Assembly: GCA_951406725.2 (NCBI GenBank)
Contig: OX597828.1
Location: forward strand, 72,416,001-72,480,000
Direction of reading: 5' to 3'
Source of the DNA: Octopus vulgaris
Lineage: Eukaryota
DNA: 64,000 nucleotides
A program made the translations under genes and the position numbers. Below the pieces are notes generated by a model. The model saw only the letters and a program-made list of their open reading frames with translations. It made no database searches and was not told the origin of the DNA. The first letter of the stretch is position 1; each line of letters starts with the position of its first letter. Below are positions 1,740 through 63,321 of the stretch, piece after piece.

Positions 1740-2034
1740 ATACATGTATGTATATATGTGTGTATGTATGTATGTATGTATGTATGTATGTATGTATGTA
1801 TGTATGTATGTATATATGTATGTATGTATGTATGTATGTTTGCATGTATGTATGTTTGTGTGTATGTATGTATGTATGTATGTATGTATGTATGTATGTA
1901 TGTATGTATGTATGTATGTATGAATGTATGTATGTATGTATATATGTATGTATGTATGTATGAATGTATACATGTATGTATGTATGTATGTATGTATGTG
2001 TGTATGTATGTATGTATGAATGTATGTATGTATG

Positions 2035-2068
<34 letters not shown>

Positions 2069-2147
2069 TGTATGTATGTATGTATGTATGTATATATGTA
2101 TGTATGTATGTATGTAATGTATACATGTATGTATGTATGTATGTATG

Positions 2148-2179
<32 letters not shown>

Positions 2180-2195
2180 AATGTATGTATGTATG

Positions 2196-2229
<34 letters not shown>

Positions 2230-2296
2230 TGTATGTATGTATGTATGTATGTATGTATGTATGTATGTACATGTATGTATATGCATGTATGTATGT
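1740..2296. repeat. (TATG)n microsatellite tract
   Basis: ~550 bp of TATG units with few interruptions. Confidence 0.98.
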
Positions 2297-2402
2297 CATT
2301 GTTCAGTTTTATTTCAAAATTTCTTGCCAATAAAGAACCGGTTTCTAACCTAGATTCTAGGTTCCTTCATTGGAATTTCAACATCAACAACAGGGTATTT
2401 TT
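2297..2402 (-). mobile_element. ~105 bp dispersed unit embedded in (TATG)n
   Basis: Same unit recurs at 32419-32868 (interrupted by a SINE) and in the duplicate at ~41890-42339, each time with TATG repeats on both sides; strand inferred from AATAAA near one end. Confidence 0.7.
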
Positions 2403-2702
2403 GTATGTATGTATGTATGTATGTATGTATGTATGTATTTATGTATGTATGTGTGTGCAGATTTGTATGTTTTACGTATGTATTCTCACGCATATAGCAT
2501 GAGAATACATACATATCTAGACATGCTCATATATATTTAAATGATAAACTTCTGGAAAGTTTTACAGATTTTTACAGTTCCAGTGATGGATTGGATCTGT
2601 AGTCTTCGAATTAGCTTTCTCCTTTCTGGTTTTGAGAAGCCTAATTTCTCAAGATTGGTATTTAGGTAGTGTGTTTATGTATGTATTATATATGCATGTA
2701 AA

Positions 2703-2909
2703 GGCGCGTAGCTTAGTGGTTAGGGGTATTCGGTTCACAATCTTAACATTGTGAGTTCGATTCCCGGCGACGCATTGTGTACTGGAGTAAGACATTTTAT
2801 TTCAAATTCATCCAGTCCACTCTGGCAAAAATGTGTGGTACCAATAATTCAAAATGAGTGGTACCAATAATTCAGCTGGAACCCACGTCGACGTAAGCGA
2901 CGGAATGCC
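2703..2909 (+). mobile_element. SINE family C, internally deleted
   Basis: A box TAGCTTAGTGG, B box GAGTTCGATTCC, body ccagtccactc.ggcaaaaatg and terminal cgtcgacgtaagcgacggaatgc match 32462-32788. Confidence 0.75.
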
Positions 2910-3084
2910 AGGGTTCTGTGTGTATGTATGTATGCATGCGTGTGTGTGTGTATGTTGTGCGTGTGCATGTATGCGTATGTGTATGTGAATGTGGTGTGTG
3001 TATGTTTGCGAACCGAATGCGACGATAACTCCACCTACATCACTTACACGACCACTCTTAGCATTTTCTCCTCTACCCGCACCT

Positions 3085-3297
3085 CAATCATCATTATCAT
3101 CATCATCCTCATCATCACCATGATTGCTACTAACATCACCGTCATCATTATCAGCATCATCTTCATCATCACCTCCACCTCCACCACCACCACTATCACC
3201 ACCGTCATCATTATCATCGTCATCATTATCATCGTCATCATTATCATTACCTTCGTCGTCGTCGCACTCGTCATCATCAACCTCCTCCTCTCCCTCC

Positions 3298-3329
<32 letters not shown>

Positions 3330-3385
3330 TTCCTACTCCTCCTCCTCATCATAACCATCAACATCACCATCATCGCCATCCTCAT
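3085..3385. repeat. compound triplet repeat (ATC/ACC/GTC/CTC)n
   Basis: Phase-conserved triplet runs. Confidence 0.9.
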
Positions 3386-3749
3386 AATAATGCTTAATCC
3401 TTTTAAGTATCTATCAGTGACCGTGTGTTGATCAGCGCCCTCTACCGGCTGATTACAATGACGAGTTGTTTCAGTCTAAACAGCTTCGGCTTTCGTTAAA
3501 GGTTATCAGCGTCAAACAATAAACAATTTACCGAATTTAAATGTCAGACAAGCTTTTCTCCGACCAATTTAATTAGCATTACCTGATTTAGACAGGTGTA
3601 GACATGTTACATTTAATGCAAACCACATTCGACTTATTACAGCAGAACATTCTAATAAATCAATGAGGCTTTTTCTTTGACAATAAAATATAATAGCTTT
3701 TTATTTTTATATATATTTCTATAGACTCGACTGATTTTTTATCTTATAA

Positions 3750-3949
3750 CTAGTTTCAGTTATTGGACTGCAGCCATGCTGGGGCACGACCTAGAAGGGT
3801 TTTGAATCGAACAAATCGACCCCAAATCAACTTAGTCTATCGGTATCTTTTACCGGAGCGCTAAGTATCGAGGATATAAGCAAACCAGCAAAAATTGACA
3901 AGTGGTCAAGGGACAAACACATACACATAAAGTTACACACAAATAAATA

Positions 3950-4038
<89 letters not shown>

Positions 4039-4790
4039 CTTTTATCTTTTACTTGTTTTAGTTATAAGGCTGTGCCCATGCTGGAGGCACTGTTGCCTTG
4101 AAGAATCTTTTAGTCAAATGGTTCGACAACAGTACTTATTTTTTAAGGTCTCTTGCCGAACCACTAAGTTACGGATACGTAAACATACCAATACCGGTTA
4201 CAAAGCAGTAGCGGTGGACAATTGCAGACGCAAAGAAACACACACACACAGACACACACAAGACGGGCTTCTTTTAGTTTCCGTCTATCAAATCCAGTCA
4301 CAAGGCCTTGGTAGAAGAGACTTGCCCAATGTGTCACGCAGTGGGACTGAACTCAGGATAACACTGTTTGCAAGCAAGCTGCTTAACCACACGACCAAAT
4401 TTGCTTAAGTTTTCCAATAATTTAGAAAAGCCATAATTTCTATCTAGAAATTATGTTCTTAAAGATTAATTATATATTTCGTATTTGAATGTTAGTATTT
4501 AACAGGAATGGATGTGTGTTTAGGAAACTCGCTTTGCAATCGCGTGTATATCTACCTTCTTTTATTCATTTACTTGCTTCAGTCATTTGCCTGCGACCAT
4601 GCTGGAGCAATGTCTAGAAGGGCTTTTAGACGAACAAGTCGAACCCGCGACTTAATTTTTTCAAAGCCTAGTATTTATTCTGTCGGTCTCTTTTGCCGAA
4701 CCCCTAGTCTACGGGGACGTAAACAGACCAAAACCGCTTGTCAGGTGGTGATGAGGTGGGGACAAATACAGACACAAAACACGCTCACAT
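3750..4790 (-). mobile_element. cluster of three degraded family B SINE copies (~3750-3950, 4038-4395, 4558-4790)
   Basis: Each contains gccatgctgg.gca and ttgccgaacc.ctaag segments; separated by (CA)n and unique DNA. Confidence 0.8.
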
Positions 4791-4969
4791 GCATAAATAC
4801 ATACATACATACATACATACATACATACATACATACATGCATGCATACATACATACATACATACATACATACATACATACATACATACATACATACATAC
4901 ATACATACATACGAATAGCCAGTAAGCAACTCTCCATCCATTAGGATGTGAACGAAGTTTTTTAAATTT

Positions 4970-5060
4970 TTGCCCTGAAGAGATTTTTACTTTTTAAATA
5001 CATATGCAATCTTAATTAAAAATATGAATGAAGGTAAGAAATTGAAACGTACGTAGGCGA
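4970..5060 (+). ncRNA. type I hammerhead ribozyme motif (PLE-associated)
   Basis: Stem I TTGCC(4970-4974)/GGCGA(5056-5060); core CTGAAGA 4975-4981; long stem II GATTTTTACTTTT/GAAGGTAAGAAATT; GAAA 5044-5047; palindromic stem III ACGTACGT; cleavage triplet GTA 5053-5055. Confidence 0.7.
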
Positions 5061-5112
5061 TATGAAACTGACTATTATATAAATAAATAAATAAATTGTT
5101 TCTGGGTTCAAA

Positions 5113-5216
5113 CACCATGACAGTTCGTGTGAACTCTAATGTTTAATGACGGAACATTAAAAGGCAAATTTTTGTAGGCGATAAGAAAATACTGTACAAA
5201 TGATATCGTTCGCCTT
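5113..5216 (+). repeat. dispersed ~100 bp repeat (second copy inverted at 11051-11154)
   Basis: gacagttcgtgtgaactct..aaatgatatcgttcgcct is the reverse complement of 11051-11154 with few mismatches. Confidence 0.85.
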
Positions 5217-5490
5217 ATGTTTTATTATTAAAATTTTGTTCTCCGATATCGAATGGATGAAAACATCTATAAGGACAACTGGAACTTCATAAGTGTTGAC
5301 ATTAAATGCTAACACAAGTTAATGAATTCTAAGTATGCAATCGATATGGAACTAAACTGGTGACGCTTGGATAAAATACATCCCTGTGAAAGATCAACCT
5401 ATTTCCATTCAATACTATATAGGTGTCCCACAGTGGGACTGAACCCGGAACCATGTGGTTGGAAAGTAAGCTTATGCTTATGTATATATA

Positions 5491-5886
5491 CTAGCAGTAT
5501 CGCCCGGCGTTGCTCGGGTTTGTAAGGGAAATAACTATATAAGCATTTTTAGAGAGTTATAGCCAAAAAATAGCCAAAAAATGCATTAAAAATGGAAAAA
5601 AATGATGGTAAATTTTTTTTAAATCGTTGACTCATCGTAGACATTTTTAGAGAGTTACTTCCCTTATATAATAGCGAAAAAATGCATTAAAATGGAAAAA
5701 AATGATGGTAAATTTTTTTAAAAATCGTAGTCTCATCGTAGACGCGCGCTAATACCCAGAAGGGCTCGATATGAATGACGACTATAAGATACCCAGTTTT
5801 GGTTAAACTGCACCGCAAAATGTGGGAGTAGTTAGGAATCTAAATCGTAGGAGACAGACACACAACTTCACTTTTATATATAAAGA
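5491..5886 (-). mobile_element. non-autonomous Helitron (396 bp)
   Basis: Minus strand A|TC.. start at 5886, GC-rich subterminal hairpin CCCGAGCAACGCCGGG (5503-5518), ..CTAG|T end at 5491, no TSD; internal ~100 bp tandem duplication (5544-5743). Confidence 0.88.
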
Positions 5887-6739
5887 TATCCGTCTATTCT
5901 TTTATTCTTTTATTTGTTTCAGCCATCAGACTGTGGTCATGCTGGGGCAACGCCTTGTATTGTATATATGTATATATTTACGTGCGTGTGTGTGTGCGTA
6001 TGAGAGTGAGTGTGTGCATGTATGAGTGTAGGTGTGTGTGTGTGTGAGTGTGTGTGTGTGTGTGTCTGTGAAATGTTTGTTAGATGAGTTGCTAAATAAT
6101 TCTCCCTGCACTGTTTACAGACGACACAACATTGTTTTAAAAACTCGCGGCTGTCTGATGATCAGTAACTTGAACCACCGGGTGATAGCTCGCCTTGCAG
6201 TATCAATAAAGTGCTACAAACACACACACGCACGCGCGCGCGCACACACACACACTCATACACGCACATGCACACAGACATACGCAGACACACACATCCA
6301 CACATACAGACTCACACACAGACACACAGAGACACACACAAGCACACACGCACACATACACAGCAAACATACATGCATAAATATCACACAGACAAATGCA
6401 CACAGATGCACCAATGCAGACACACGCGTACACACACACAAATACAGACACGCACACACACATACACGTAGACATACGCACACGAACACAGACACAGACA
6501 TAGACACACACACGCCCACGCAACACGCACATAAACACAGAACCACAGACATATGCACACAGAAACACACCACTCACACATACCCACGCACACGCAGACA
6601 CACGCACACAAACAAACACACACACGCACACGTAGACACACGCACACAACACAGACACAGACACAGACACAGACACACACACGCACACACACGCACACGC
6701 ACACACACGCACACATATAGAGAGCGTCCTCGACATTGG

Positions 6740-7050
6740 GCAAGACGGTAATTATTAACGGAAGTCTTCTCAGCAATTCGTTTCAGAGAAGCTAACGACG
6801 TCTCCTGGGAATTGAACAAAGTTTTAGTGGAAAGACGGGAATAGGTAAAGGAGAAACGAATAAGTACCTGGAGATACGCCTTGCGGACAGTAAGAAGCAT
6901 CTATGGCCTTTCAAGACGAAAATACGATGCAAAGAGATTTTCAGAACGTTGTATAAGGGAGTGTTGTAATTAGGGTTGGGATAGAATGACGAGATTAAAG
7001 AACAGAAACATCATCAGAACTGGCTGGAGATTAGAGGGGGGCGATAAAGA
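6740..7050 (-). pseudogene. degenerate LINE ORF2 fragment just upstream of the RT domain
   Basis: Frameshifted translation [17 protein letters not shown]...[11 protein letters not shown] resembles the KAxGPDGI...GDxxxxxNYRPI motifs of APE-type LINEs. Confidence 0.45.
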
Positions 7051-8528
7051 GAGGCTAAAATATCAGCAGTTCAGATATCAGAGATAAGAAATAGGTTGTA
7101 AGATAATCAAATGTCATTCTGTTAATTAAGGAAATAGTCATCGAAACACACGTCTCCTTTTTATTTTCTGCTTTGTCAAGAAACCTAAAACCTTTCCGAT
7201 GTTATTTTGTCAAAAACAAAACGAAAACAACAAAAAAAACAAAGCAAAACAAAAGGATCGATGGATGGAATAATCCTTCACAAATCAATGGAAACGTAGA
7301 AATCTATTTTCAAAGATTGAAGAAGTATTTTGTTTCGGTATTAATAAAAGGCCACTCTTTTGGTTCTTTACAGTTGAAGATGCGAGGAAGTTAATGGAAA
7401 GCGATTGAGGCAGGTGAGGAATTACGTTCAAAATCGATAACGGATTTGATGGAATTGATGACAGAAAATGGCGGATGTCTTGGACTGAAATATAAATGTG
7501 AATAAAAAAAAAAGTGGAGTTGTGTTTTTGTTCTGAAAATAGGTTCTGCTGGTTTAGCATTAAAGATTGTTGTTGTTGTTGTTGTTGTTGAGCAGGTCTG
7601 TTCGCATGAACATTCCAGCATCACCATGTATTTTTCTTTGCTTTTTCCATAAAAGGCAGGGTGCGAACTGAATGAAATTTGGCCGCTATTTTTGGCGTCC
7701 ACCTTAAAGTTCCCTTTGTTAGTCGGTTATAGTAATGGTACGTGCTGTACAAGAAATATTGTAATAAAGAAGCTTACAACATCAAAGCGTGTTCGAAGAA
7801 GGAATAAAAACCATTCTGATATAAAATACCAATTCCATACGTATTAGGCAGAATAATGAATTAGGTCATACGCATGGCTAACTATCGAAATATCGAAATA
7901 TCAGGTTCTAAAGATTCACTCAGTGTAGGAAAACCGATTTACTTAAAAACAAAATAAAAAAAACAAAACAATACAAAACAAGACAAAAATCATTTTGGAA
8001 TCAATAACGTGACTAAAGGTTAAAAACAACCTGAAATAAGCAATTTTTGACATGTATTGACGACTTCTGCTGATATAAATCTTGATAGTGGAAGTGAAGC
8101 AATCCCAGGCGGTGACAGATAACAGGTTAGCTAAACTGTAAGATCTATTTGTTGGATGTGGGACGTTGGAGAACGCATCTTTTTAGCTGTTTTCACAGTC
8201 GTTATTGTGGTAAGTCGTATACGTGGTTATATTAGACTGGAAGTCCCCTCCCACCTCACTACGTCATTGATGCTTTATACATCGACTTTTCAAGAATGAC
8301 AGATACCTGTTACTTTGACGGGATTTGAACTCAGAGCTCAAAAGAGCCGGAACAAAAAAGACTGCAGAGCATTCTCTCGGATGCATTGCCGTGTCTATCA
8401 TCTATTGTCTTAAACGGAATAAATTCTTCATTCAATAACACCAACAGGAACTTCTAACTTGTCTCGTGAGGTCTCTGGGTGAGACTTGGAGCCAACTAGT
8501 ACAAACGCAAAGCAAAAGTTAAACATAA

Positions 8529-8590
<62 letters not shown>

Positions 8591-8591
<1 letters not shown>

Positions 8592-8796
8592 TTCTTTATT
8601 GCCCACAAGGAGCTAAACATAGAAGGGACAAACAAGGACAGACAAAGGGATTAAGTCGATTACATTGACCTTAGTGCGTAACTGGTACTTAATTTATCGA
8701 CCCCAAAAGAATGAAAGGCAAAGTCGACCTCGGCGGAATTTGAACTCAGAACGTAGCGCCAGACAAAATACTGCTAAGCATTTCGCCCGACGTGCC
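8591..8796 (-). mobile_element. SINE family A, within (TAA)n
   Basis: B box GAGTTCAAATTCC, core GCCGAGGTCGACTTTGCCTTTCAT, tail cttgtgggcaataaagaaa; (TAA)n on both sides. Confidence 0.9.
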
Positions 8797-8818
8797 GCTA
8801 CTGCTGCTGCTGCTGTTG

Positions 8819-8854
<36 letters not shown>

Positions 8855-9034
8855 TTAATAATAATAATAATAATAATAATAATGATAATAATATCAACAG
8901 GATTATTAGGAGGATCCTAAAAATTGAAAGACTAATGAACATTTGTGGACACCCAACGTTGCAGACAGTAACCTGTTATCCACATAAGTCCTACCAAGAA
9001 TAAGACCGAACCTGATCCAAATCAAAATAATGAA

Positions 9035-9792: not shown

Positions 9793-9793
<1 letters not shown>

Positions 9794-9985
9794 GGGAGAG
9801 TTTACGAAAAAACCAAAAGACGAAGACAGGTAGTGTACAAAACAAACAGATGCATTAGTATAACGCTCAGGAATAGAAAAAGTCTTTTACGTTTCGAGCC
9901 TACGCACTTCTACAGAAAGGGACACAGAAAAAACAAGGAGAGAAAACAATGTGTGTAGTGGCTAACGATCTATCATGGCGACTGC
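9793..9985 (-). mobile_element. (TA)n-anchored short element (family P, divergent subfamily) with minimal hammerhead motif at 9884-9919
   Basis: Minus strand CTTT-CTGTAGA-AGTGCGTAGGCTC-GAAAC-GTA-AAAG followed by ttcctgagcg as in other P copies. Confidence 0.65.
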
Positions 9986-10009
9986 CATATATATACATAT
10001 ATATAATCT

Positions 10010-10379
10010 TAATAATAGCATAGGGTAAAATGAACGAATTAATAATTTTACCAAGTTGTCAGTACGTTAAAAAATTTTTTTAGGTAAATTATACAAAATA
10101 TTCTATAATTATATACATAATTATAATCAGGGGTCATCTAAGTGTCTCGCCACGTACTGAATTAGAAATAGACACTAATGTCTTTTCAGCTACCATAAAA
10201 ATGTCCGAGACAATAACACACTTTTTTATGTAGGTGAAAAGAAAAATGATGAGTCCACACGACTTCGGTTAATCACAGACGCGTTTCGAACTTATATTAA
10301 ATTAAATTATTTGGTATTTGAAAAGACAGCGTCTATTAGCTGACCCCTGATTATAATTATGTATATAATTATAGAATAT

Positions 10380-10380
<1 letters not shown>
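10010..10380. repeat. foldback element with perfect 40 bp inverted repeat (10097-10136 / 10341-10380)
   Basis: AATATTCTATAATTATATACATAATTATAATCAGGGGTCA and its exact reverse complement; left tail recurs at ~59430-59550. Confidence 0.85.
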
Positions 10381-10438
<58 letters not shown>

Positions 10439-10439
<1 letters not shown>

Positions 10440-10695
10440 AAACATTATTATCGAGTTAGAAAACAGAGATCTATTTGGTACAAATTAATTAATTAATTAA
10501 TCAACTTATTCACCTACAATTGTTTAATTTCACAATTGTAGGTAAATATGCTGATTAATTAATAAGTTAATTTGTATCCATTAGATCTCTCTTTTTTCTA
10601 ACCCGATAATAATGTTTGATGTTTTATGATATTTTATATAATATATTCATTGAAGAAATATCTCTATAAGAGGTTTAGATATCCTCAATGTGACT
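10439..10695. repeat. foldback element: ~85 bp imperfect arms (10439-10617) plus ~80 bp tail, between (TA)n tracts
   Basis: AAACATTATTATCGAGTTAGAAAA..CCTACAATTG pairs with CAATTGTAGG..TTTTCTAACCCGATAATAATGTTT. Confidence 0.85.
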
Positions 10696-10753
10696 ATATA
10701 TAATATATATATATATATACATACATATACATACATATATATATATATATATA

Positions 10754-10801
<48 letters not shown>

Positions 10802-10805
<4 letters not shown>

Positions 10806-11010
10806 ATCCAAGCACGAAAGCACAAAGAGAAAACACAACAACGCGAGGACGTGGAACAAGTATAGTGTTATTGGACGCTCAGGAAAGGAAAGAAAGAAGG
10901 AGGATGTAATGTTTCGAGCGGACCTCTTCGTCAGAAACATAGGAAAAGGAAAGGTCCAAGGTAGGGAAGACGGAGAAAGAAAATCGCCAACGGTACACAC
11001 GTGGTCACGT
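10802..11010 (-). mobile_element. family P element with minimal hammerhead motif at 10904-10938
   Basis: Minus strand GTTT-CTGACGA-AGAGGTCCGCTC-GAAAC; ends TTGGATTAAC directly against (TA)n. Confidence 0.75.
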
Positions 11011-15392: not shown

Positions 15393-15782
15393 CGGCGAGC
15401 TGGCAGAGTGGTTAGCACGCCGAGGGAAATGCTTAGCCATATTTCGTCTGCCCCTACGTTCTGAGTTCAAATTCCGCCGAGGTCGACTTTGCCTTTCATC
15501 CTTTCGGGGTCGATTAAATAAGTACCAGTTACGCACTGGGGTCGATGTAATCAACTTAATCCATTTGTCTGTCCTTGTTTGTCCTCTCTGTGTTTAGCCC
15601 CTTGTGGGTAATAAAGAAATAGGTATTTTGTCTGTCTTTATGTTCTGAGTTCAAATTCCGCCGAGGTCGACTTTGTCTTTCCTCTTATAGGAGTCGATAA
15701 ATTAAGTACAGTTGCGTACTGGGGTCGATCTAATCCCCTCCCCCCAAATTTAAGGCTTTGTGCCTATTATAGAAATGATTAT
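15393..15782 (+). mobile_element. SINE family A, dimeric form
   Basis: A box TGGCAGAGTGG, B box GAGTTCAAATTCC; second unit lacking the A box from ~15622 with a different tail. Confidence 0.9.
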
Positions 15783-20525: not shown

Positions 20526-20565
20526 TATTTATATTTATTATGTATCTATCTATATATAATGAATA

Positions 20566-20968
20566 TCTCTTTTACTCTTTTACTCTTTTACTTGTTTCAG
20601 TCATTTGACTGCGGCCATGCTGGAGCACCGCCTTTAGTCGAGCAAATCGACCCCGGGACTTATTCTTTGTAAGCCCAGTACTTATTCTATCAGTCTCATT
20701 TGACGGGGACATAAACACACCAGCATCGGTTGTCAAGCAATGCTAGGGGGACAAACACAGACTCACAAACACACACACACACACACATATATATACATAT
20801 ATACGACAGGCTTCTTTCAGTTTCCGTCTACCAAATCCACTCACAAGGCATTGGTCGGCCCGGGGCTATAGCAGAAGACACATGCCCAAGATGCCACGCA
20901 GTGGGACTGAACCTGGAACCATGTGGTTGGTTAGCAAGCTACTTACCACACAGCCACTCCTGCGCCTA
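20566..20968 (-). mobile_element. SINE family B, near full length
   Basis: Head AGGCGCAGGAGTGGCTGTGTGGTAAG, B box GGTTCAGTCCC, internal (TA)/(TG) microsatellite, (GAGTAAAA)n tail. Confidence 0.92.
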
Positions 20969-21624
20969 TATTATGTGCATATATAATGCAGGTATATGCA
21001 TATGATACGTAAGCATCTGTGTATAGATATACATACATACATACATACATGCACACGTACATACATACATACATGCAGGTATATATAGGTACATACATAC
21101 CTATATATGTATATACATATATACCTATATATATGTATATATAGGTATATATGTATATATATATCTATACTATATAGAGGTATAGATAGATAGACTGAGC
21201 GGACATAAATAATATAGATGTATACTTTGGTCAGCGTTGGTGTGTGTGTGTGTGTATATACATATATATATATGCACACACATACATACCTACATACATA
21301 CACACACATATATGTTCATATATTTATACATCTGTACACACTTGATAAGAATATATTCCTTTGCACACACATATTCCTTTGCTAATAATTCTCCAGGAAC
21401 TGGCTACTAAATTTAACTGACCACGGAAATATTGCCTTATAAATCCACTTAGTAAAGACTTATATAAATTGGATAGGCCAGCGTGTATTTGTAGCAAATT
21501 TATGGTTGCTAGTTATTTGAACAAATTATGTGAGTATAAAGTTAACGCCCCAACGATTTACTAATCAAAATTGTGTTGAGTACACGCCATACGTCCCAAT
21601 TGCTCTGTTTAGTTTAATGAATTC

Positions 21625-23457: not shown

Positions 23458-23686
23458 GGCGGCGAGCTGGCAGAACCGTTAGCACGCCAGGCGAAATGCG
23501 TAGCCGTATTTCGTCTGCCGTTACGTTCTGAGTTCAAATTCCGCCGAGGTCGACTTTGCCTTTCATCCTTTCGGGGTCGATAAATTAAGTACCAGTTACG
23601 CACTTGGGTCGATGTAATCGACTTAATCCGTTTGTCTGTCCTTGTTTATCCCCTCTGTGTTTAGCCCCTTGTCGGTAGTAAAGAAA
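23458..23686 (+). mobile_element. SINE family A, full-length monomer
   Basis: GGCGGCGAGCTGGCAGAACCGTTAG head, B box, core and tail. Confidence 0.92.
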
Positions 23687-23720
23687 TATATATACATACA
23701 TACATATGTACATATATATG

Positions 23721-25210: not shown

Positions 25211-25912
25211 ATCTTTAGCCTGGAGTGCCAGTGTTTCTCCTTTCCCTGTCCAATGTCTTCGGCGCTCGACATTTTATTATGCGAACCCACTTCTTGTCAT
25301 CAGTCACTTTTCGCGCTAAAAAAAGGTTTATTCGTGAGATGTGAGAACAAAGAAGAGTACACAGTCAGTCTCTGCGCGCGATTAGACTCGGATAGTTTGT
25401 GAGGAACCCATTGACCCAATTTGCTGACTTTTCCGATGTCACGCATGTATCGATGAATGGTTGAACGACCAAATCCAATCTTCTCTGCTAGTTGCTGAAC
25501 AGTTGTGATGGGATTTTTTTCCACCAGGGTTTGCAGGACGTCCTCGTCGAGCTCTACAGATCATCCAGTACGAGACTCGTCTTCCAGGCTGTAGTTTCCG
25601 GCTCAGAATTTCTAGAACAACCATTGACACTGGCTTACGCTTATTGTCCGATCCCCATAAACTGCATTAATATTCCCCACACTTTCCATTACGTTGTTAC
25701 CTTTATTAAACTCATAAAGTGAAATACGCCGAATATGCTTCTTTGTCACTTCCATTACAGCTTTGAAAAAATAACTGTTAAAATCGAACTGCACTTTTGC
25801 ACTAAGAACAAAGGTAAGGTGTAATTACTACCTGCTTTTATAGCAAGTTGATGCTGGTAGTTTATTCCGTCCCCCTCTGACTTTTAACCGCATTATTTAT
25901 GGGATGATCCAG
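25211..25912 (-). pseudogene. mariner transposon 5' half: one TIR and disrupted transposase
   Basis: TA (25913-25914) + CTGGATCATCCCATAAATAATGCGG terminus; ATG at 25755, HTH region, WVPHKL motif, VTDDKKW (first catalytic D region); stops at 25612 and 25561 and frameshifts. Confidence 0.92.
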
Positions 25913-25939
25913 TATCTATATATATACATGAGACATGTA

Positions 25940-26130
25940 TATTAATAATAAGAAAATGAAAAAAAAAAAAAACGCAAGAAATAAACCGCAACGCAAGGAC
26001 GTGGTACATGCAAAGTATTAAAAGAAGCTCAGTGAAGGAAAGAAAGGGTGTTTTACGTTTTGAGCCAAGCTCTTCTTCAGAAACAGGAGAGGAAGGAAAG
26101 TCCAAGAGAAAAGGAGGACGGAGGAAATAA
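25940..26130 (-). mobile_element. family P element with minimal hammerhead motif at 26050-26084 (duplicate 35961-35995)
   Basis: Minus strand GTTT-CTGAAGA-AGAGCTTGGCTC-AAAAC-GTA-AAAC. Confidence 0.7.
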
Positions 26131-26307
26131 ATCTATGTATATACATATCTACATGCATATACAATATGCATATATATATATATATATATATATACTTTGT
26201 ATATAGATATATGTATGTATACACACATACGTATATATATATATACTCTCCTACTTCTATACATATTATATGTTACATATATATAATTATATATTATATA
26301 TGCATAA

Positions 26308-26375
<68 letters not shown>

Positions 26376-26409
26376 GTATACCTATCTATCTCTCATATGT
26401 AATTAATAT

Positions 26410-26750
26410 AGTAGCAGGCTATGGCCAGTGAGGGAGTTACCGCTGGTTTTTGATCTATAAAGTTCTTAGCAGTGAATGTGATATCTCAGACTTGTTTATC
26501 GGAAGCTCAAAACCTATCTACAATAGGAGGTAGGAATGCACTCTTGGTGAGTCAGGGTTGTGAACAAACCCCGAAATTGATGCTCAGTAGAATTTCATTT
26601 TGTAGTTTTTCCCCACAATTCTGACTGACTAAGACTGTATTCCTATCTCCAGTTGTTAAGAGGTTAAGTGCCTCCGTTGAACGAGTCTATACCACTAAGA
26701 AATTATGGGTGCGAAACCAATGGTTACTCTCTGACAGGTCACAACTAGCT
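26410..26750 (+). mobile_element. non-coding PLE 3' segment between TA-rich tracts
   Basis: aggttaagtgcctc..GAAACCAATGGTTACTCTCTGAC matches the reverse complement of 22485-22615 downstream of the GIY-YIG remnant. Confidence 0.65.
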
Positions 26751-26803
26751 ATAATATAACTATATCTATTATATATGTATATATGTATATATGTATATAT
26801 GTT

Positions 26804-26871
<68 letters not shown>

Positions 26872-26872
<1 letters not shown>

Positions 26873-27014
26873 TTCCTTCTCCTATGTTTCCGAGGAAGAG
26901 CTCCGCTCGAAACGTTAAACCCTCCTTCTTCCTTCTTTCCTGAGCGTCCAATAATACTATATTTGTTCCACGTTCCACGTTGTTGTGTTTTTTTGTTTTC
27001 TTGTTTGGATTAAC
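26872..27014 (+). mobile_element. family P element (5'-truncated) with minimal hammerhead motif at 26886-26920
   Basis: GTTT-CCGAGGA-AGAGCTCCGCTC-GAAAC-GTT-AAAC; ends TTGGATTAAC + (TA)n. Confidence 0.75.
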
Positions 27015-27044
27015 TATATATATATATACATACATATATATATA

Positions 27045-27142
27045 GGTTTTGTAATATATATGTATATGTTTGTATGTATGTGTGTGTACATATATATATA
27101 TATATTTATTTATTTATATTTGCTACATATACTTATATATGT

Positions 27143-27219
<77 letters not shown>

Positions 27220-27322
27220 CCACATATATAAGTATATGTAGCCAAATATAAATAAATAAATATATATATATATATATGTACACACACATACATACAAACA
27301 TATACATATATATTACAAAACC
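27045..27322. repeat. ~280 bp palindrome centred on (TA)n
   Basis: GGTTTTGTAATATA..TATGTGG is the reverse complement of CCACATA..TATATTACAAAACC; left arm absent from copy 2. Confidence 0.9.
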
Positions 27323-28230
27323 TTGGTAGGTAACACAGAATTTCACACAAGGGGCTGGGCTGTTCCCGACAATAGGTTACGAGCAACTCACCCCGGGACG
27401 AGTCTCAGGGTGATTATTCGACCTCCGTTGTAATGTTTTGATACAGTAACATAACTATCTACTGCACTTGTCAGTTTTAGTCACTCGCGAACTCATCAAT
27501 TCAATTCTCAAACAAACTGAGTGCAGTTTTTTCAGCAATGATTGTCCAGTCTTTAGCTACATTTCGCAATCAAATAACTGGAATTTCGCTCATTCAAAAA
27601 TGAAAAAAATTAGTTGAAATTATATGAGGTAAAAATGGCGGAGTAAGGCGGAAAATTGACTTTGAATTAAAATATCTCAGCTCTTGTTGAAGAAAACCAT
27701 ACAACAGTTATGTTCAAACGAATGAGTCCTCTGAGATAAATGCTATAGTGAAAACCTTGTCAAAAAATATTAGCCACAATAAAGTGGTGTGGCTGTAACT
27801 GACGAGTAAAGAATGTGATCATTTTAAGAAAGTAAAATATTTTTGTCGTTTTAAAATATTTAGCATTATAAAAACATCATATGACATTATGGGTCACTTG
27901 TGTGTCTGTGGTGGCTTGCCAAGTATTTTGTTTTTTCGTTTTCTGAGGGTATTTAGTCGATCTTCTAAGCTATTTTTACAGCTACTCTGCGTTCGAAATT
28001 GAGTTCAGATAAAAGAATCGTATGAGAAGAATCTTATGGTAAAAACCTTGTCCAAAACTATCTGCTAGCTACGAAAACTGCTGTGTGGTTTCAAGAGACG
28101 AAGAAGGAAAAAAAGTGTAATTTTTAGAAATCAAACTATTTAAGAGAAAGATGATATTATTTAAAATCAAGACAAATAATTCAACAAGACGAATATTTTG
28201 GAGAAAACACCGCCTGAAAAAGGTTGAGCA

Positions 28231-28436
28231 TTCTTTTATTCTTTTACTTGTTTCAGTCATTTGACTACGGCCATGCTGGAGCACCGCCTTTTAGTCGAAC
28301 ATATCGATCCCAGGACTTATTCTTTGTAAACCTAGTGCTTATTCTATCGGTCCATCTTGCCGAATCCCTAAGTTACGGGGACGTAAACACACCAATATCA
28401 GTTGTCAAGCGATGCTGTGGGGACAAACATAGACAA

Positions 28437-28525
<89 letters not shown>

Positions 28526-28693
28526 CGACGGACTTCTTTCAGATTCTGTCTACCAAATCCATTCCCAAAGCTTTTGTCGGCCCGAGGTTATAATAGAAGA
28601 CACTTGCCCAAGATGCCACGCAGTGGGACTGAACCCGGAACCACGTGCTTGATAAGCAAGCTACTTAGCACACAGTCAGTCACTCCTGCGCCT
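28231..28693 (-). mobile_element. SINE family B, full length (duplicate ~38014-38478)
   Basis: Head to tail match with (CA)n expansion in the middle. Confidence 0.9.
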
Positions 28694-29051
28694 AAAAATA
28701 GTTATGATTTCTTGCGATTTCATATTCATTTTTATTATTTTGTTTCTATATTAAATTATGTACTTACTAAAAACATATCAAAATAAAAAAATTCACTCAT
28801 GAAAAAAAGCTAATTATTAATTATTTGATTAGAATATAACATTATTTTATCGTAATATATTTACTTGTAACAGATAGTATGCTGTTAATCCTTTTTTATT
28901 TTTATGTGCAAACAAAATTTTTAAATTTGAACAAAATCTGTATTTAAAATCTGTATCTAAAAATATGTAAAATAGTATCATTTTTTAAAAATTAGAAAGG
29001 TAAATATAATTAGCCACAAGCATAGAAGCGTTGCCTAGGAAAGGAAAGTGG

Positions 29052-30011
29052 ACTACAATGAAAAATATGGACGCAGGATCCTCGAATATTCTTAAGTATT
29101 GAACCTGGGAAAGTACACAAACCGTAATTTAAGCTTGGAAAAGTACAGGACAAAAGAAAAAATTTAAACCTCACAGCTGAAGTTAGGATTTAGTAAATAA
29201 ATTTCTGAAATTGTTCATGAAATAGAGTGTGCTGTGTCTTGTTTTTTATGACTTTTTTGCTTTTTATTATAATTTAAAAAATTTAAGTTAATATTTTTGA
29301 GTTAAAAATTTCTTTGTATTAAGATGAAAGATTTTCTTTCCTATTTTTAATATTATATTACCTTTTTAATTTTCTTTTCTTAACTAAACACATTATTCAA
29401 AAAATTTAAATCACAGATATTGTGTTTCAAAATTAAACTCATGTAGAATATATGTAATTAAAACGAATAACATATAGTATTAAAAAGTTTTTTAAACAGG
29501 TAAAAAAGAATTAATTTCTTTAAAGATTGCATCATCAGATAACAAAATATTTCCTATTTACAGTTAGAAAAATATTATGAAGAATGAAATCCCATGAACA
29601 AATTTATTGCAAAATGTAGAAATGACTCCAGTTTTTTAAAAAATCTTTTTTTATACTTCGGGGTTATAATTGTCAGTTTTGCATAAATTGCTATTTAGTG
29701 ATTTTTGAAAATATACAAATTTGTAATATGAAATATTTAATGTGTAAACTTGCAGACAATTAGTTTTTTTTCACTAAAATAGAAAATAAATAGCTTCTTA
29801 AATAGCTTCATTTAAGCTTTTAAGTAAAAAAAATATATAAAAGGGAATTCATTACTATTTTAGTTTTAAATTCTAACTTCAGCAGTAATATTTTAATTTT
29901 TCTTTTCTTGTCCAATACTTTTCGAAGCTTAATTAGTGCTTGTTCTGTAAACTTCCAGGAGCAATACTTAAGAATATTCTAGGAATCTGCGCCCGCACTT
30001 TTCATTGTAGT
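29052..30011. mobile_element. MITE-like element with ~145 bp imperfect terminal inverted repeats (duplicate 38837-39799)
   Basis: ACTACAATGAAAA..GAATATTCTTAAGTATTG..GCTGAAGTTAG (29052-29195) pairs with 29865-30011; very AT-rich interior; no TSD seen. Confidence 0.75.
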
Positions 30012-30367
30012 TAATTAATGTTTGATCTACGTAAAATATAGCTGTCTTAGATTTTATAACTCTGGTACGACTATGTACGTACACACACTCATAAAATTAT
30101 ATGTGTACATATGTGTGTGTGTGTGTGTCTGTACGTGTGTATATGTGTGTGTATATGTATTTATAGACTTATACATCCTATTTAGATAAGCAATACTTAC
30201 GCCCTTTTCTTAGCGAAGGCGTTGTAAACGGTGATCTACCAACATAAGAATTTACCTTTATATACATACATATATACATACATACATACATACATACATA
30301 CATACATACATACATACATACATACATACATGCATATATATCATATATATGCATGTATATATATATA

Positions 30368-30544
30368 GGGAATTTTTTTCCTCTGTCTTCCCTTCTCGGG
30401 ATCTTTCCTTCTCCTATGTTTCCGACGAAGAGCTCCGCTCGAAACGTCAAACCCTCCTTCTTCCCTTCTTTCCTGAGCGTCCAATAATACTTTATTTGTT
30501 CCACATCCTTGCGTTGTTGTCTTTTTGTTTTCTTGTTTGGATTA

Positions 30545-30546
<2 letters not shown>
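30368..30546 (+). mobile_element. family P element with minimal hammerhead motif at 30418-30452 (duplicate 40200-40234)
   Basis: GTTT-CCGACGA-AGAGCTCCGCTC-GAAAC-GTC-AAAC; (TA)n on both sides. Confidence 0.78.
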
Positions 30547-30591
<45 letters not shown>

Positions 30592-30874
30592 TATTGTGTG
30601 TCTCCACTGCCCTGTCTTTGTTCCCAACTTTGACCCCTCCATAAATCCCAAATTTTATTTTGGTATTTGTGGGAGCAACTGCTTTCGAAGACTCATATTG
30701 TCGTTCAGTGTTCGAAATGAGGAGTAGATCGGCAGCCGACAACCGATGAAGAGTCGTTCTTTATGTTTCTTGTCCTGTTTTCCGTTTGTTTCTCTCGTCG
30801 TTTGTTTATTCAACTCGTTTGTTTCCGTATTTCATCTTGTTTACTGTTTGTGAAGTCCTGTACCCATATATACA

Positions 30875-30910
30875 TGCATACATACATACATACATACAAA
30901 CATACATACA

Positions 30911-30942
<32 letters not shown>

Positions 30943-31192
30943 CATACGTACATACATACATACATACATACATACATACATACATACATACGTACATACA
31001 TACATACATACATACATACACACATACATACATACGTACATACATACATACATACATACATACATACATACATACATACATACATACATACATACATACA
31101 TACATACATACATACATACATACATACATACATACATACATACATACATACATACACATACATACATACATATACATACATACATACATACA

Positions 31193-31226
<34 letters not shown>

Positions 31227-31240
31227 CATACATACATATA
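30875..31240. repeat. (CATA)n microsatellite
   Basis: ~365 bp; much shorter and partly (TA)n in copy 2 (~40670-40845). Confidence 0.97.
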
Positions 31241-31298
31241 CATATATGTATAAATTATATATTATTATTTGACTGAACGCTTTGCATCCATTTCCAAA

Positions 31299-31332
<34 letters not shown>

Positions 31333-31363
31333 AGTATATATGTATATATATATATATATATAT

Positions 31364-31424
<61 letters not shown>

Positions 31425-31439
31425 ATAGGCGTATATAAT

Positions 31440-31512
<73 letters not shown>

Positions 31513-31732
31513 TATTAGAAAGGTGTGGCAAGAAAATTTTATTGATCTTAGAATTCTTCACAAGTTGTTACTCCGAGATTCTCATAACTGATCCTCAGAT
31601 GACCGGTTGCATACTTTGTGAAGTTTGTTTCAGTTTCAATAACGCCTTACATTTAACTCTACCTTTAGTGCTCGGGCATCATTTACCCCGCTCACCCATT
31701 CTCATCCTCACAACAAAGCATCGCTTTTGTCT

Positions 31733-32093
31733 TTTTTCTTGTTTCAGTCATTGGACTCCGGCGGCCATTATGGGGCATCACTTTGAAGAAGGAATCTTCC
31801 CCCATAGCATTTTTGAAGCCTGGTGCTTACTATATCGGTCCCTTTTGCCGAAAGTCTGATTTACAGTGATGTAAACATACCAACACCGGTTGACCAGACG
31901 TGGTCGGGGAAAAACACAGATTCAAAAACACACGTACATATATATATGTATATATATATATATATAATATATATATATATATATAAATATACACGCACGC
32001 GCACACACGTGCACATATACATACATACATACATACATACATACATACATACATACATACATACGCACACACACAGACATAGACACAGACACA

Positions 32094-32147
<54 letters not shown>

Positions 32148-32305
32148 TATATATACACCCATATATACGTCCGCCAAATCTACACACAAGGTTTTAGCTG
32201 CCCGAAGCTATAACAGAAAGCACTTGCACAAGGTGCCATGAGGTGGAACTGAACCCTGAACTATTGGGTTGAGAAGGAAACTTCTTATCACACAACCACG
32301 TTTGC
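31733..32305 (-). mobile_element. SINE family B with greatly expanded internal microsatellite
   Basis: Tail 31733-31920, compound repeat ~31930-32165, head 32165-32305. Confidence 0.8.
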
Positions 32306-32315
32306 ATCTACACAC

Positions 32316-32372
<57 letters not shown>

Positions 32373-32461
32373 ACGCACACACACACAGACACACACACAC
32401 ACATGTATGTATGTATGTCATTATTCAGTTTTATCTCAAGATTTCTTGCCAGTAGAGAAAG

Positions 32462-32788
32462 GTAGGAGCACTCCGTCGGTTACGACGACGAGGGTCCCAG
32501 CTGATACGATCAACGGAACAGCTTACTCGTGAAATTAACGTGCAAGTGACTAAGCAATCCACAGACACGTGTACCCTTAACGTAGTTCTCAGGGAGATTC
32601 AGCCTGACACAGAGTATGACAAGGCCGGCCCTTTGAAATACAGGTACAACTCATTTTTGCCAGCTGAGTGGACTGGAACAACGTGAAATAAAGTGTCTTG
32701 CTCAAGGACACAACGCATCGCCGGGAATCGAACTCACGACTTTACAATCGTCAGTCGAATGCCCTAACCACTAAGCCACGCGTCTTCA
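32462..32788 (-). mobile_element. SINE family C, full length, 13 bp TSD (duplicate 41933-42259)
   Basis: TSD CCAGTAGAGAAAG at 32449-32461 and 32789-32801; A box TGGCTTAGTGG, B box GAGTTCGATTCC. Confidence 0.93.
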
Positions 32789-33262
32789 CCAGTAGAGAAA
32801 GAGCCGGTTTCTAACCTAGATCCAGGGTTCCTCCATTGGAATTTCAACATCAACAACAGGGTATCTTTGTATGTATGTATGTATGTATGTATGTATGTAT
32901 GTATGTATGTATGTATGTATGTATGTATGTATGTATTTATTTGTTTATGCACCACACAAGCCTGTATGAGCAAACAATGGTGGATTTCTTAGTATTTTTA
33001 TTCGTTCATTTGCACGCCATTTTGAGCTTGGACGAAACAGTAGATCTACCATTTGTAAATAAACGTACACCAAAAAGAATTATACCGTAGGGAGAAAAAT
33101 GAAATCAATGTTCGTAATTTATTGTTTTTTATTCACAAATTTATCGGGGGATGAAAACCAGACTTTTGTCTGCTAATATACAAATTGGGTATGTATATAT
33201 GGAATTTTAGAGGTATCTAGAAGTTATTTAAAGGCATTTAGGCATATATATATATACATATA

Positions 33263-33304
<42 letters not shown>

Positions 33305-33539
33305 GAGGTATATAGGGGTCTTCATATGTGTCTATTTTACAATAGATATTCAGATTTAATTTGAGGAAGAATTAAACTGATATTTCTTGCAGGTCGAATG
33401 GTCATGTATAAATTCTCTTGTCTCTGGAACATACACGGGTGTGTTTGTGTATATATACGTACATGTTTATATACATACATATATTTGCATATACATTTAT
33501 ATATATATATCTGTATATATATATGCATGTTTGCGTATG

Positions 33540-33608
<69 letters not shown>

Positions 33609-33733
33609 TTATATATATATATATATATATATATAAATTTGTATACACACACATACTCAAGCACCCATATATATATATGTATATATATATACATATATAT
33701 ATGTATATATATATATATATGTATATATATATG

Positions 33734-33814
<81 letters not shown>

Positions 33815-33935
33815 AGATATATATACTTACATATACGTTTTGTGTGTGTCTGCATATTTGAATGTGTGTGAATGTCAAACCAATTTATTAATAGAATTGG
33901 AAAAGCAGACACGGACAACCAACTACGCACGCGCG

Positions 33936-34007
<72 letters not shown>

Positions 34008-34138
34008 CCACGTGTAACGTGTTTTGGCGATTCTACTAATTATCCTTGGTCCGTCTTGGCTTGCTGTGTTTGCATCGACCTAAACCAATTGTTAGTACAA
34101 AGAAACAAATGAAAATACATTCAGGATATATGGTAAAA

Positions 34139-34173
<35 letters not shown>

Positions 34174-34574
34174 GGAAAGCAAAGTAGCTAACTAAACTAA
34201 TAAATTGAATCTATATAAAATATCTGTTTTGGACTGTGTTATAATTCCATTTGTGGAGCGCTAATGTATAATATGTATATGCACATATATAAATATACAT
34301 ACATTCATATAGATAAATATACATACATACATATACATATATGTATATAAATATGTATATAAATATGTATATATATATATGTATATATATATATGTATGT
34401 ATATATATGTATAATTGTGTATATGTGTAAGTGTGTGTGTGTGTGTCATTTGGTTACCTTCCACTGAACTGGCATTGAGCCTAAAAGACAAATAATTCAC
34501 ACATAAACACACACACATATTTATATCTGTATGTATGTATATACCCATATTTATGTAAGTATATATATGTATAT

Positions 34575-34648
<74 letters not shown>

Positions 34649-35369
34649 ACGTGTGCGTGTGTATATATGCATATGTATATGTAGTTTCATCTATCTATCT
34701 GTTTGTCTGTCTGTCTACTGTCTGCATATCTATCTATCAATCTATCTCTCTCTCTCTCTCCCCCTCTCTCACTCACTCACTCCCCCCCTCTCTCTCTCTC
34801 TATATATATATATATATGTACACATATGTAGAGAATGAAAGAGAGGGAGTGTGTGTGTGTGTGTGTGAGAGAGAGAGCAAGAGATGGGGAGAGAGAATTT
34901 CTTTTTGGAATCGACCTTAATATTAGTTAAAAACCAAATATACCGGAAGTGACTTATTTCTTAATAGATTTACAAGTAAAGTGAAACTATTTTATTCCAG
35001 CCGTGTGCATTGAGAATAAAACAAATATTATGCATTGTTTCTTCCGCCTACCTCTCGTTATTATATGTATTTTTGTATTTTTTAAATTTTCTTTGATATG
35101 GAAAGGAGAAAAAAACAGGGTTTTTTCACCGATCTTAACGTTTCTATTGGCTTAGTTACCGTTTATATTCCATTCGTGCCGAAATTTTTTTACTGAATGA
35201 AATTGCCCGAAAATTCACAGATATTATTATTTTGACCTAAATAACAACTGAAATCCGTTTGATACAGACTGCATACGCGTTAAGAACATGTTTCATTCTT
35301 TGATACAGACCATACACAAATCACAATTTACATCAATCATTTGTTTTATACCCGTATGACCGCCTTTTC

Positions 35370-35469
35370 NNNNNNNNNNNNNNNNNNNNNNNNNNNNNNN
35401 NNNNNNNNNNNNNNNNNNNNNNNNNNNNNNNNNNNNNNNNNNNNNNNNNNNNNNNNNNNNNNNNNNNNN
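35370..35469. other. assembly gap (100 N)
   Basis: Exactly 100 N, the usual unknown-size scaffold gap placeholder. Confidence 0.99.
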
Positions 35470-44806
<9,337 letters not shown>

Positions 44807-44812
<6 letters not shown>

Positions 44813-45687: not shown

Positions 45688-46079
45688 TCTTTTCTACTCT
45701 AGGCACAAGGCCCGAAATTTTTGAGGAGGGGGCCAGTCGATTAGATCGACCCTAGTGCGTAAATGTTACTTAATTTGTCGACCCCGAAAGGGTGAAAGGC
45801 AAAGTCGATCACGGCGGAATTTGAACTTAGAACGTAGCAGCAGACGAAATACCTATTTCTTTACTACCCACAATGGGCTAAACACAGGGAGGACAAACAA
45901 GGACAGACAAATGGATTAAGTCGATTATATCGACCCCAGTGCGTAACTGGTACTTATTTAATCTACCCTGAAGGATGAACGGCAAAGTCGACCTCGGCGG
46001 AATTTGAACTCATAGCGGCAGACGAAATACCGCAAAGTATTTCGCCCAGCGTGCTAATGATTCTGCCAGCTCGCTGCCT
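45688..46079 (-). mobile_element. SINE family A, dimeric form, 16 bp TSD
   Basis: TSD TACGAGACCAATATAT at 45672-45687 and 46080-46095. Confidence 0.93.
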
Positions 46080-52243: not shown

Positions 52244-52275
<32 letters not shown>

Positions 52276-58345: not shown

Positions 58346-58365
58346 TGGAACTAGTAAAAGAGTAT

Positions 58366-63300: not shown

Positions 63301-63321
63301 AATTAGAGTTGCTTTTCTTAA

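Follow-up and report, generated by a model that had tools for sequence, protein, structure and literature searches.

The repeats of family P, six copies of which were predicted in a 64,000-nucleotide stretch of the Octopus vulgaris genome (GCA_951406725.2, contig OX597828.1, positions 72,416,001 to 72,480,000; hereafter the window), are, as judged from sequence, the 3' ends (pseudo-LTRs, pLTRs) of at least two coding lineages of Penelope-like retrotransposons (Penelope-like elements, PLEs), and not the single family originally proposed. We consider it highly probable that these are the ends of coding Neptune-type PLEs lying in (TA)n, and that the short copies are likely internally primed cDNAs that ran off at the 5' end of their RNA. 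The reading as PLE ends follows from the fact that each type of copy, subfamily C excepted, matches the end of a 4-6 kb element encoding a reverse transcriptase (RT) and a GIY-YIG endonuclease (EN).

A profile built from the six window copies yields, in the 64-kb window, just those six, all at the coordinates predicted for them, and three duplicates (E<1e-13). The duplicates fall within a ~9.8-kb direct duplication (25555-35369 versus 35470-44812, 93-98% identity) that flanks a 100-N gap at 35370-35469, so that the window holds six independent family P insertions; the duplication may be an assembly haplotype duplication. The copies, with their hammerheads and duplicates, are as follows.

9793-9985, reverse strand: family P copy, pLTR end of lineage B, identical at 178/190 positions to the end of the coding B copy L250
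9919-9884, reverse strand: minimal hammerhead of lineage B, with stem I CUUU/AAAG, an A6U core and the triplet GUA
10802-11010, reverse strand: family P copy, decayed pLTR end of subfamily A3, identical at 171/194 positions to the RT/EN-linked L034
10938-10904, reverse strand: hammerhead of the 10802 copy, canonical CUGACGA, with one broken pair each in stem II, stem III and stem I
25940-26130, reverse strand: family P copy of subfamily C (the oldest, with a canonical CUGAAGA core), 3' end decayed
26084-26050, reverse strand: hammerhead of the 25940 copy, with a private G12A
26872-27014, forward strand: family P copy of subfamily A2, identical at 134/140 positions to the EN-linked L031
26886-26920, forward strand: hammerhead of the 26872 copy, with U4C
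30368-30546, forward strand: family P copy of the young subfamily A2, identical at 173/174 positions to the end of L031
30418-30452, forward strand: hammerhead of the 30368 copy, with U4C and every stem intact, cleavage predicted after 30448
52153-52240, forward strand: stub of the youngest coding subfamily, A1, identical at 95/96 positions to the pLTR of the full-length L073
35879-36045, reverse strand: duplicate of the 25940 copy, in the local segmental duplication
36759-36883, forward strand: duplicate of the 26872 copy
40151-40328, forward strand: duplicate of the 30368 copy

Four of the window copies terminate in TTGGATTAA(C) adjoining (TA)n. The window as a whole is 34% GC, with many TA, CA and TATG repeats. 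The 9793 copy, whose hammerhead is predicted to cleave after 9888 and has a single private break in stem II, begins ~98 nt upstream of the predicted cleavage site (the edge class below) and has (TA)n adjoining its 3' end. The 10802 copy begins ~103 nt upstream of its cleavage site, the 26872 copy is truncated 45 nt upstream, and the 52153 stub begins ~5 nt downstream. The best 40 genome matches of the 30368 copy are 97-100% identical. The window also contains two dispersed repeat families, probably SINEs, of 200-400 bp and with copies 75-94% identical: one at 8587-8795, 15393-15735, 23458-23691, 45817-46078, 52942-53159, 53741-53976 and 54236-54473, the other at 4557-4864, 20562-20969, 28230-28694, 47818-48191, 52246-52529, 58101-58364 and 63320-63734. 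Elsewhere, six-frame output gave a putative intronless seven-transmembrane-receptor-like ORF (L032:3887-4825) and a putative helicase-like (Helitron-type) ORF pair (L033:6761-7723).

Stem I, core, A, stem II, GAAAC, GUH and stem I' are present in five of the six window copies, each with substitutions and none fully canonical (0/5), just as predicted; stem III is the loopless palindrome ACGU in four of the five. By this layout the motif is the minimal, dimer-type hammerhead of the PLE kind that had been proposed, with cleavage predicted. The substitutions, which had been regarded as deviations from an intact consensus, are present, but U4C and A6U turned out to be subfamily consensus rather than decay. 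Similarly, the stem I pairs do differ between copies, but what had been called covariation amounts to one difference that separates two PLE lineages. Within the ~9.8-kb duplication, the subfamily C hammerhead differs at core positions between its two copies. Minimum-energy folding and cofolding with ViennaRNA did not produce the hammerhead dimer, and are uninformative for a 4-bp intermolecular stem; hammerheads were also absent from the best 150 of 680 Rfam matches in the window, all of them microsatellite noise.

The core changes are fixed by lineage, the older subfamilies being canonical and the younger ones carrying U4C or A6U. Divergence was taken as the median from the subfamily majority in samples drawn by exact anchor (for C, by likeness to the window copy), and thus gives relative ages.

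Subfamily C: 5.4% divergence, CUGAAGA/GUA
Subfamily A3: 4.2% divergence, CUGACGA/GUU
Lineage B: 2.9% divergence, A6U
Subfamily A2: 2.8% divergence, U4C
Subfamily A1: 0.7% divergence, U4C and a U-U pair in stem I

Canonical CUGANGA is found in 25/26 scored cores of C (30 loci) and, by majority, in A3. It is not the consensus of A1, A2 or B, with U4C in 26/26 scored A1 cores and A6U in 22/22 scored B cores (30 loci each). The dominant core is CCGA-type (85 CC, 13 CT and 2 CA among the first 100 listed of 6,374 exact family-A cores) or, in B, CUGU-type; the former is the state that the original prediction had counted against itself if inactive. Its expectation of a majority consensus close to intact was not supported: the consensus cores of A1, A2 and B are non-canonical. 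We rejected CpG decay as the main source of CTGA cores, both because the count at position 4 is 13/100 against 2/100 at the neighbouring CpG and because A3 and C are CTGA by consensus. The five subfamily consensuses all keep stem II, GAAA, the ACGU palindrome, an unpaired base after A9 and G10.1-C11.1, with an outer stem I pair that varies by subfamily (G-C, C-G, A-U or G-U). Stem I is fully paired in 44/53 A2 and 44/51 B cores and has one U-U mismatch in 24/24 A1 cores. Such changes suggest that the ribozyme core of the youngest lineages is likely weakened. U4C is reported to reduce in vitro activity considerably, yet the viroid carrying it stays infectious, and an A6C variant is slow to cleave (PMC3088659); minimal PLE hammerheads are described as cleaving weakly and as dimers only (PMC4209133). 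A minor subfamily, represented by L024:1787-1962 and L092:7209-7348 and by ~8/100 A3-type anchors, has a GUG triplet and an A-U outer stem I pair, and is likely uncleavable.

The claim of an abundant family was supported. The genome comprises 2.8 Gb in 227 contigs, and we sampled density in forty 10-kb segments placed at round coordinates across 28 contigs. In these 400 kb the profile has 25 matches (E<=0.01), against 0 once the sequence is reversed. Scaling by density gives an estimate of ~175,000 genome copies (Poisson interval 113,000-258,000), the true interval being wider owing to clustering, as 4 of the 25 matches share one locus. Exact anchors of 22-34 nt match 921 (A1), 1,947 (A3), 6,415 (B) and 8,115 (A2) times, against 0 for the reversed patterns.

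Some family P copies continue upstream into CA-rich sequence and, in L031, on to a GIY-YIG ORF remnant 2.7 kb upstream of the family P end. Used as a query, this remnant gave 15,164 candidates; 150 of them were scored, and many of these lie in open frames of 880-1,010 codons. The 17 A1 loci that we fetched, selected for long frames, comprise 15 single copies and two head-to-tail arrays (one trimer and one dimer, with a ~6.2-kb period). A family P end lies ~3 kb downstream of the RT+EN frame in 17/17, and another lies upstream in 13/15 single loci. The layout of L073, a 6.2-kb unit, is (TA)n, 5'-truncated pLTR, body, ORF, 3-kb C/A-rich UTR, pLTR, (TA)n, and the upstream and downstream pLTRs are at least 99.6% identical in 14/14 mapped A1 copies. 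The UTR consists of ~3 kb of degenerate CA repeats (L073:5260-7780; 40% C and 34% A over the measured stretch), so that every long A1 insertion disperses microsatellite-like CA-rich DNA. In 10/17 A1 copies (L065-L084) the first ATG and the RT are in different frames, the break lying ~500-600 nt into the ORF and mostly at one C run; this is either an assembly homopolymer error or a real shared frameshift.

The A1 ORF product (P0003, 1008 aa stop to stop) has an RVT_1 domain at 491-677 followed by GIY-YIG at 913-949, with Pfam scores for both below the gathering thresholds. It carries the motifs DKG, LDVKSLY, GVAMG and YIDD and a C-x4-CxxC linker between RT and EN, within the CX2-5CxxC form of Neptune/Nematis, and it shares with these a CCHH motif in the EN. 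By these motifs we would class the coding PLEs as Neptune-type. Database homologs number 636 at E<=0.001; they carry PF00078, and the named ones come chiefly from aquatic animals. A PDB sequence search with P0003 gave 0 matches, and a search with the EN fragment for homologs in longer proteins gave 1. Of the features of EN+ PLEs, the following are found: a single ORF with RT and then C-terminal GIY-YIG, DKG, pLTRs in partial tandem, 5' truncation and a pLTR hammerhead. Contigs assembled from four sequencing runs (three presumed RNA, plus one unlabelled, about 3,800 million letters) span the greater part of the pLTR and ORF and showed no GT-AG intron joint or transcript end; we gave them no weight as evidence of expression.

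Lineage B, a sister lineage with a 4.2-kb unit, has RT/EN upstream in 7/20 long loci, at about 54-67% identity; the coding lineages are 60-67% identical in amino acids. The B unit in L250 measures 4,180 bp and has two pLTRs, and its ORF is broken. A coding partner sharing the end sequence, of the kind whose search had been proposed, is present for both A1 and B. For subfamily C, which belongs to lineage A, a coding partner was not seen within 1.5 kb at 30 loci with short flanks. A candidate non-autonomous unit, an internally deleted B derivative of ~500 bp with the body start fused to the pLTR, occupies L216:9330-9860; beside it, in inverted orientation, is what remains of a more distant PLE (26-36% identity to P0003).

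The 3' ends are enriched at (TA)n, as predicted. A (TA)n tract starts at most 12 nt from the 3' end in 25/30 A2, 19/30 A3, 28/30 A1 and 17/30 B copies, pooled 89/120, against a background of 5.5%; the sample was picked by internal anchor, and an unrecognised end motif was scored as a miss. Both A1 misses are pLTR/body junctions. This junction itself holds a short TATA tract, with 80 exact matches in A1, and likewise in B and in an A3-type copy. Together with the coding PLEs, these results bear out the description of a TA-targeting, ribozyme-bearing retroelement. A tail of 30-40 bp was not seen at any of the sampled 3' ends.

The 5' ends had been described as variable, which is true in the window, but genome-wide they pile up at a fixed edge. 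We give positions relative to the predicted cleavage site, +1 being the first base after GUH. In anchor-picked samples, 24/30 A2 copies end between -65 and -125 and 22/30 A3 copies between -76 and -124; for B, 26/30 end between -46 and -113, the few near -60 being perhaps alignment stops at a T run. Searches for 5' ends joined to TA gave 2,212 matches at -94 to -123 in A2 and 1,343 at -89 to -118 in B, and 86-258 in the other A2 windows, totals that are not strictly comparable as the A2 edge anchor is of 17 nt and the others of 23 nt. Beyond the edge, only ~3/98 unique listed matches pass -112 in A2 and ~5/96 pass -99 in B (hand counts, with 2-3 more ambiguous in each). The 5' ends of short copies are thus non-random, piling up at a sharp edge that precedes the predicted cleavage site by 95-112 nt. 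Penelope transcription is reported to begin within the pLTR, from an internal promoter (PMC2377424). On the evidence of sequence, the edge likely corresponds to the transcription start. Some B 5' junctions (e.g., G000:C1:200523974-200524024) carry a short inverted copy of the first bases of the element, resembling the self-priming palindromes of PMC3846280. The edges coincide with what we take to be initiator-like motifs.

The edge class is rare in A1 (3/30, versus 24/30 in A2, p=6e-8), where 12 copies extend to the end of the 1.5-kb locus. Such rarity in the youngest coding subfamily is not what simple run-off from full-length transcripts would predict, and edge-class short copies dominating the older large subfamilies is what would be expected if the ~200-bp copies were a SINE-like offshoot, that is, solo pLTRs transcribed from an internal promoter into their own (TA)n tail and mobilised by PLE protein in trans. 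The internal promoter of the Penelope pLTR (PMC2377424), the existence of non-autonomous PLE derivatives (PMC8557442) and the internally deleted B derivative would all fit this view, to which we assign a real but minority probability. It sits less well with the comparison of 28 short and 32 long B copies, the long ones chosen by likeness to one copy, which share one consensus and similar divergence (3.6% versus 3.3%) with no short-only variant. Being alike in consensus and age, short and long B copies make run-off on a full transcript and SINE-like solo masters inseparable. RT/EN-linked long copies exist in each tested subfamily but C, and Poseidon RNA is reported to require ORF-start sequence (PMC11167929), which solo copies are without. 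An Rfam scan of the 30368 copy alone gave no hammerhead, nothing below E=3.7 and no small-RNA-derived head of the kind found in tRNA or 5S SINEs.

Full-length copies behave differently from the short edge-class copies, as they are more-than-unit cDNAs with random stops. The upstream pLTRs of 14 full-length A1 copies span -174 to at least -1,900, and among 30 of the 80 body-linked A1 junctions, 28 lie past -150, one at -106 and one at -21, with none at +1 to +19. A linear template starting at the edge was rejected for these copies, as 0/14 and 1/30 body-linked pLTRs (partly overlapping sets) end near it. More-than-unit copies with random stops require a circular or tandem template, or template jumps. 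A circular RNA template has been proposed as a model (PMC4209133); here the circle is unproven, because tandem donors exist among the A1 loci.

A minor class of 5' ends lies at the cleavage site. On the reverse strand, TA-joined ends were found for 138/4,107 anchors at +19 to -11, versus 52/4,079 at +48 to +19 and 43 of at least 3,300 at -18 to -47. This is a ~2.7-fold excess just downstream of the cleavage site (p=2e-10 and 5e-9 versus the flanking windows). By hand count, 85/95 unique listed matches in the cleavage-site window lie downstream of the cut, 25 of them at +1 to +4. In A1, 24/26 unique listed sites are at +4 to +9, as is the 52153 stub, and 2/30 copies end at -22, just beyond the window that gave 24/26. 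The asymmetry is weak in B (~59 downstream and 34 upstream of 93). In A3, with its canonical core, the yield after the cleavage site is 18/976, lower than the 138/4,107 (p=0.013), a comparison confounded by age. The GUG variant, a natural control, accounts for 1/37 junctions versus 8/100 anchors (p=0.44). We consider the chances about even that the excess of junctions downstream of the cut is caused by in vivo cleavage; RT pausing at the folded ribozyme would give junctions at the same place.

Extending that caveat, both 5' pile-ups could reflect RNA structure and TA microhomology, through RT pauses or preferred junctions, rather than RNA ends, with the young hammerheads as dead passengers. 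The junctions do favour microhomology, clustering at points where 1-3 letters are common to the element and TA repeats, and the footprint does not track core quality. Likewise, changes at U4 and A6 reduce in vitro activity (PMC3088659), the stem I mismatch is constant in A1, and Naiads proliferate without canonical hammerheads (PMC8557442). We nonetheless find this account rather unlikely, slightly more so than the SINE-like offshoot. Two lineages that differ in sequence both show a sharp, one-sided edge, which long copies pass without a pile-up; junctions are also far scarcer at a comparable pyrimidine tract upstream of the core than at the one following the cleavage site. The palindrome, stem II and GAAA persist in 5/5 consensuses, and U4C is compatible with viroid infectivity. 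A third possibility, that family P is a non-LTR retrozyme cycling as a small circular RNA, short, non-coding and independent of any coding body, is very improbable: the size near 200-300 nt and the type I hammerhead would suit it, but short copies have one mid-sequence hammerhead rather than a unit bounded by two, and the tandem units found are coding, of 6.2 kb and 4.2 kb, with no head-to-tail hammerhead units of about 200-400 nt among the fetched loci or in 400 kb of other stretches. The search for tandem copies thus succeeded for coding arrays but not for short ones, and the suggested non-autonomous retrozyme-like RNA is not supported.

Under the preferred reading, the short copies as PLE ends run off at the RNA 5' end, the endonuclease would nick (TA)n, and the nicked strand would pair with the (UA)n tract of the RNA, priming reverse transcription at that point. 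With an uncleaved transcript as template, RT would arrive at the transcription start after ~200 nt, giving the major short class; a circular or tandem template would take it through the 3' UTR and ORF and past one unit, giving the long copies and their pLTRs; and on RNA cut by a hammerhead dimer, it would halt after ~95 nt, giving the minor stub class. Ribozyme cleavage would likely be slow, perhaps protein-assisted, and speed is likely unneeded for insertion. In the Poseidon PLE in vitro, initiation is internal, near the pLTR-ORF junction, product length tracks the RNA 5' end and hammerhead mutants insert, although initiation there occurs at a site without homology to the target, in contrast to the pairing suggested here (PMC11167929). 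More tentatively, and we would not expect all of it to hold, the genome might be read as a fossil record of the PLE cycle. The short insertions would then mostly map the transcription start and a minority in vivo cleavage, the long ones would derive from a ribozyme-made 6-kb circle primed by (UA)n/(TA)n pairing, and the cores would have been successively weakened. In that case, the activity of recent lineages along the series canonical, U4C, U4C plus stem I mismatch would imply that slow, protein-gated cleavage was tolerated or favoured.

If the basic reading alone holds, this is an ordinary, very abundant PLE. PLE ends may account for a sizeable number of the short repeats in octopus. The role of the hammerhead in endonuclease-bearing PLEs has been called unclear (PMC8557442), and in the sole in vitro system cleavage is unnecessary and no RNA ends are reported at the cut site (PMC11167929). 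Subfamily A1, with 0.7% divergence, an intact ORF, ~900 exact-anchor ends and 80 pLTR/body junctions, beside older canonical, U4C and A6U subfamilies, offers natural material for comparing priming, RNA start and cleavage. Our search of the literature on octopus hammerhead ribozymes, PLEs in microsatellites and U4C, which covered papers rather than their supplements, found no description of these families. The main text of an octopus repeat annotation (PMC13282606) does not mention ribozymes, and a study of Neptune in killifish (PMC12602865) contains nothing about targets or ribozymes.

Among known systems, the hammerheads resemble the metazoan PLE type I hammerheads of Cervera and de la Pena 2014 (PMC4209133) in the missing loop 3, the palindromic 15.2-16.2, the unpaired base after A9, G10.1-C11.1, the 4-bp helix I, the pLTR position and the prevalence of solo copies of truncated PLEs. 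They differ in a helix II of 4 bp, against 7-8 bp in the Schistosoma families, in the fixation of U4C or A6U in young subfamilies, and in number, with ~175,000 copies estimated here against the 2,000-9,000 per genome reported there. Metazoan non-LTR retrozymes (PMC7229834; bioRxiv 10.64898/2026.07.22.740005) likewise have a type I hammerhead and a link to PLE pLTRs, and can also reach very high copy number (up to 120,000 in axolotl), but are described as short tandem units with canonical hammerheads, whereas family P consists of dispersed single ends of coding elements. Poseidon_Ac of the green anole (Frangieh et al. 2024, PMC11167929) is similar in initiating internally close to the pLTR-ORF junction, in having AT-rich targets, in using mainly uncleaved RNA as template and in not needing the hammerhead for insertion, the mechanism being inferred in our case. 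There, a 30-40-bp tail marks two sites and the initiation site lacks target homology, whereas here one end coincides with a (UA)n tract that matches the target, and the hammerhead is located outside the ORF. The coding elements are closest to the Neptune/Nematis EN+ PLEs (Craig et al. 2021, PMC8557442), with which they share the single RT-GIY-YIG ORF, DKG, the CX2-5CxxC linker, pLTRs in partial tandem, 5' truncation and a microsatellite bias attributed there to the linker. They differ, with the clade assigned by motifs, in the ~3-kb CA-rich 3' UTR of A1, the sharp modal 5' edge and the TATA tract at the junction. The family P PLEs thus belong to a known kind, the EN+ PLEs, and are distinguished by their fixed 5' edge, their junction TATA tract and their age-ordered core changes.
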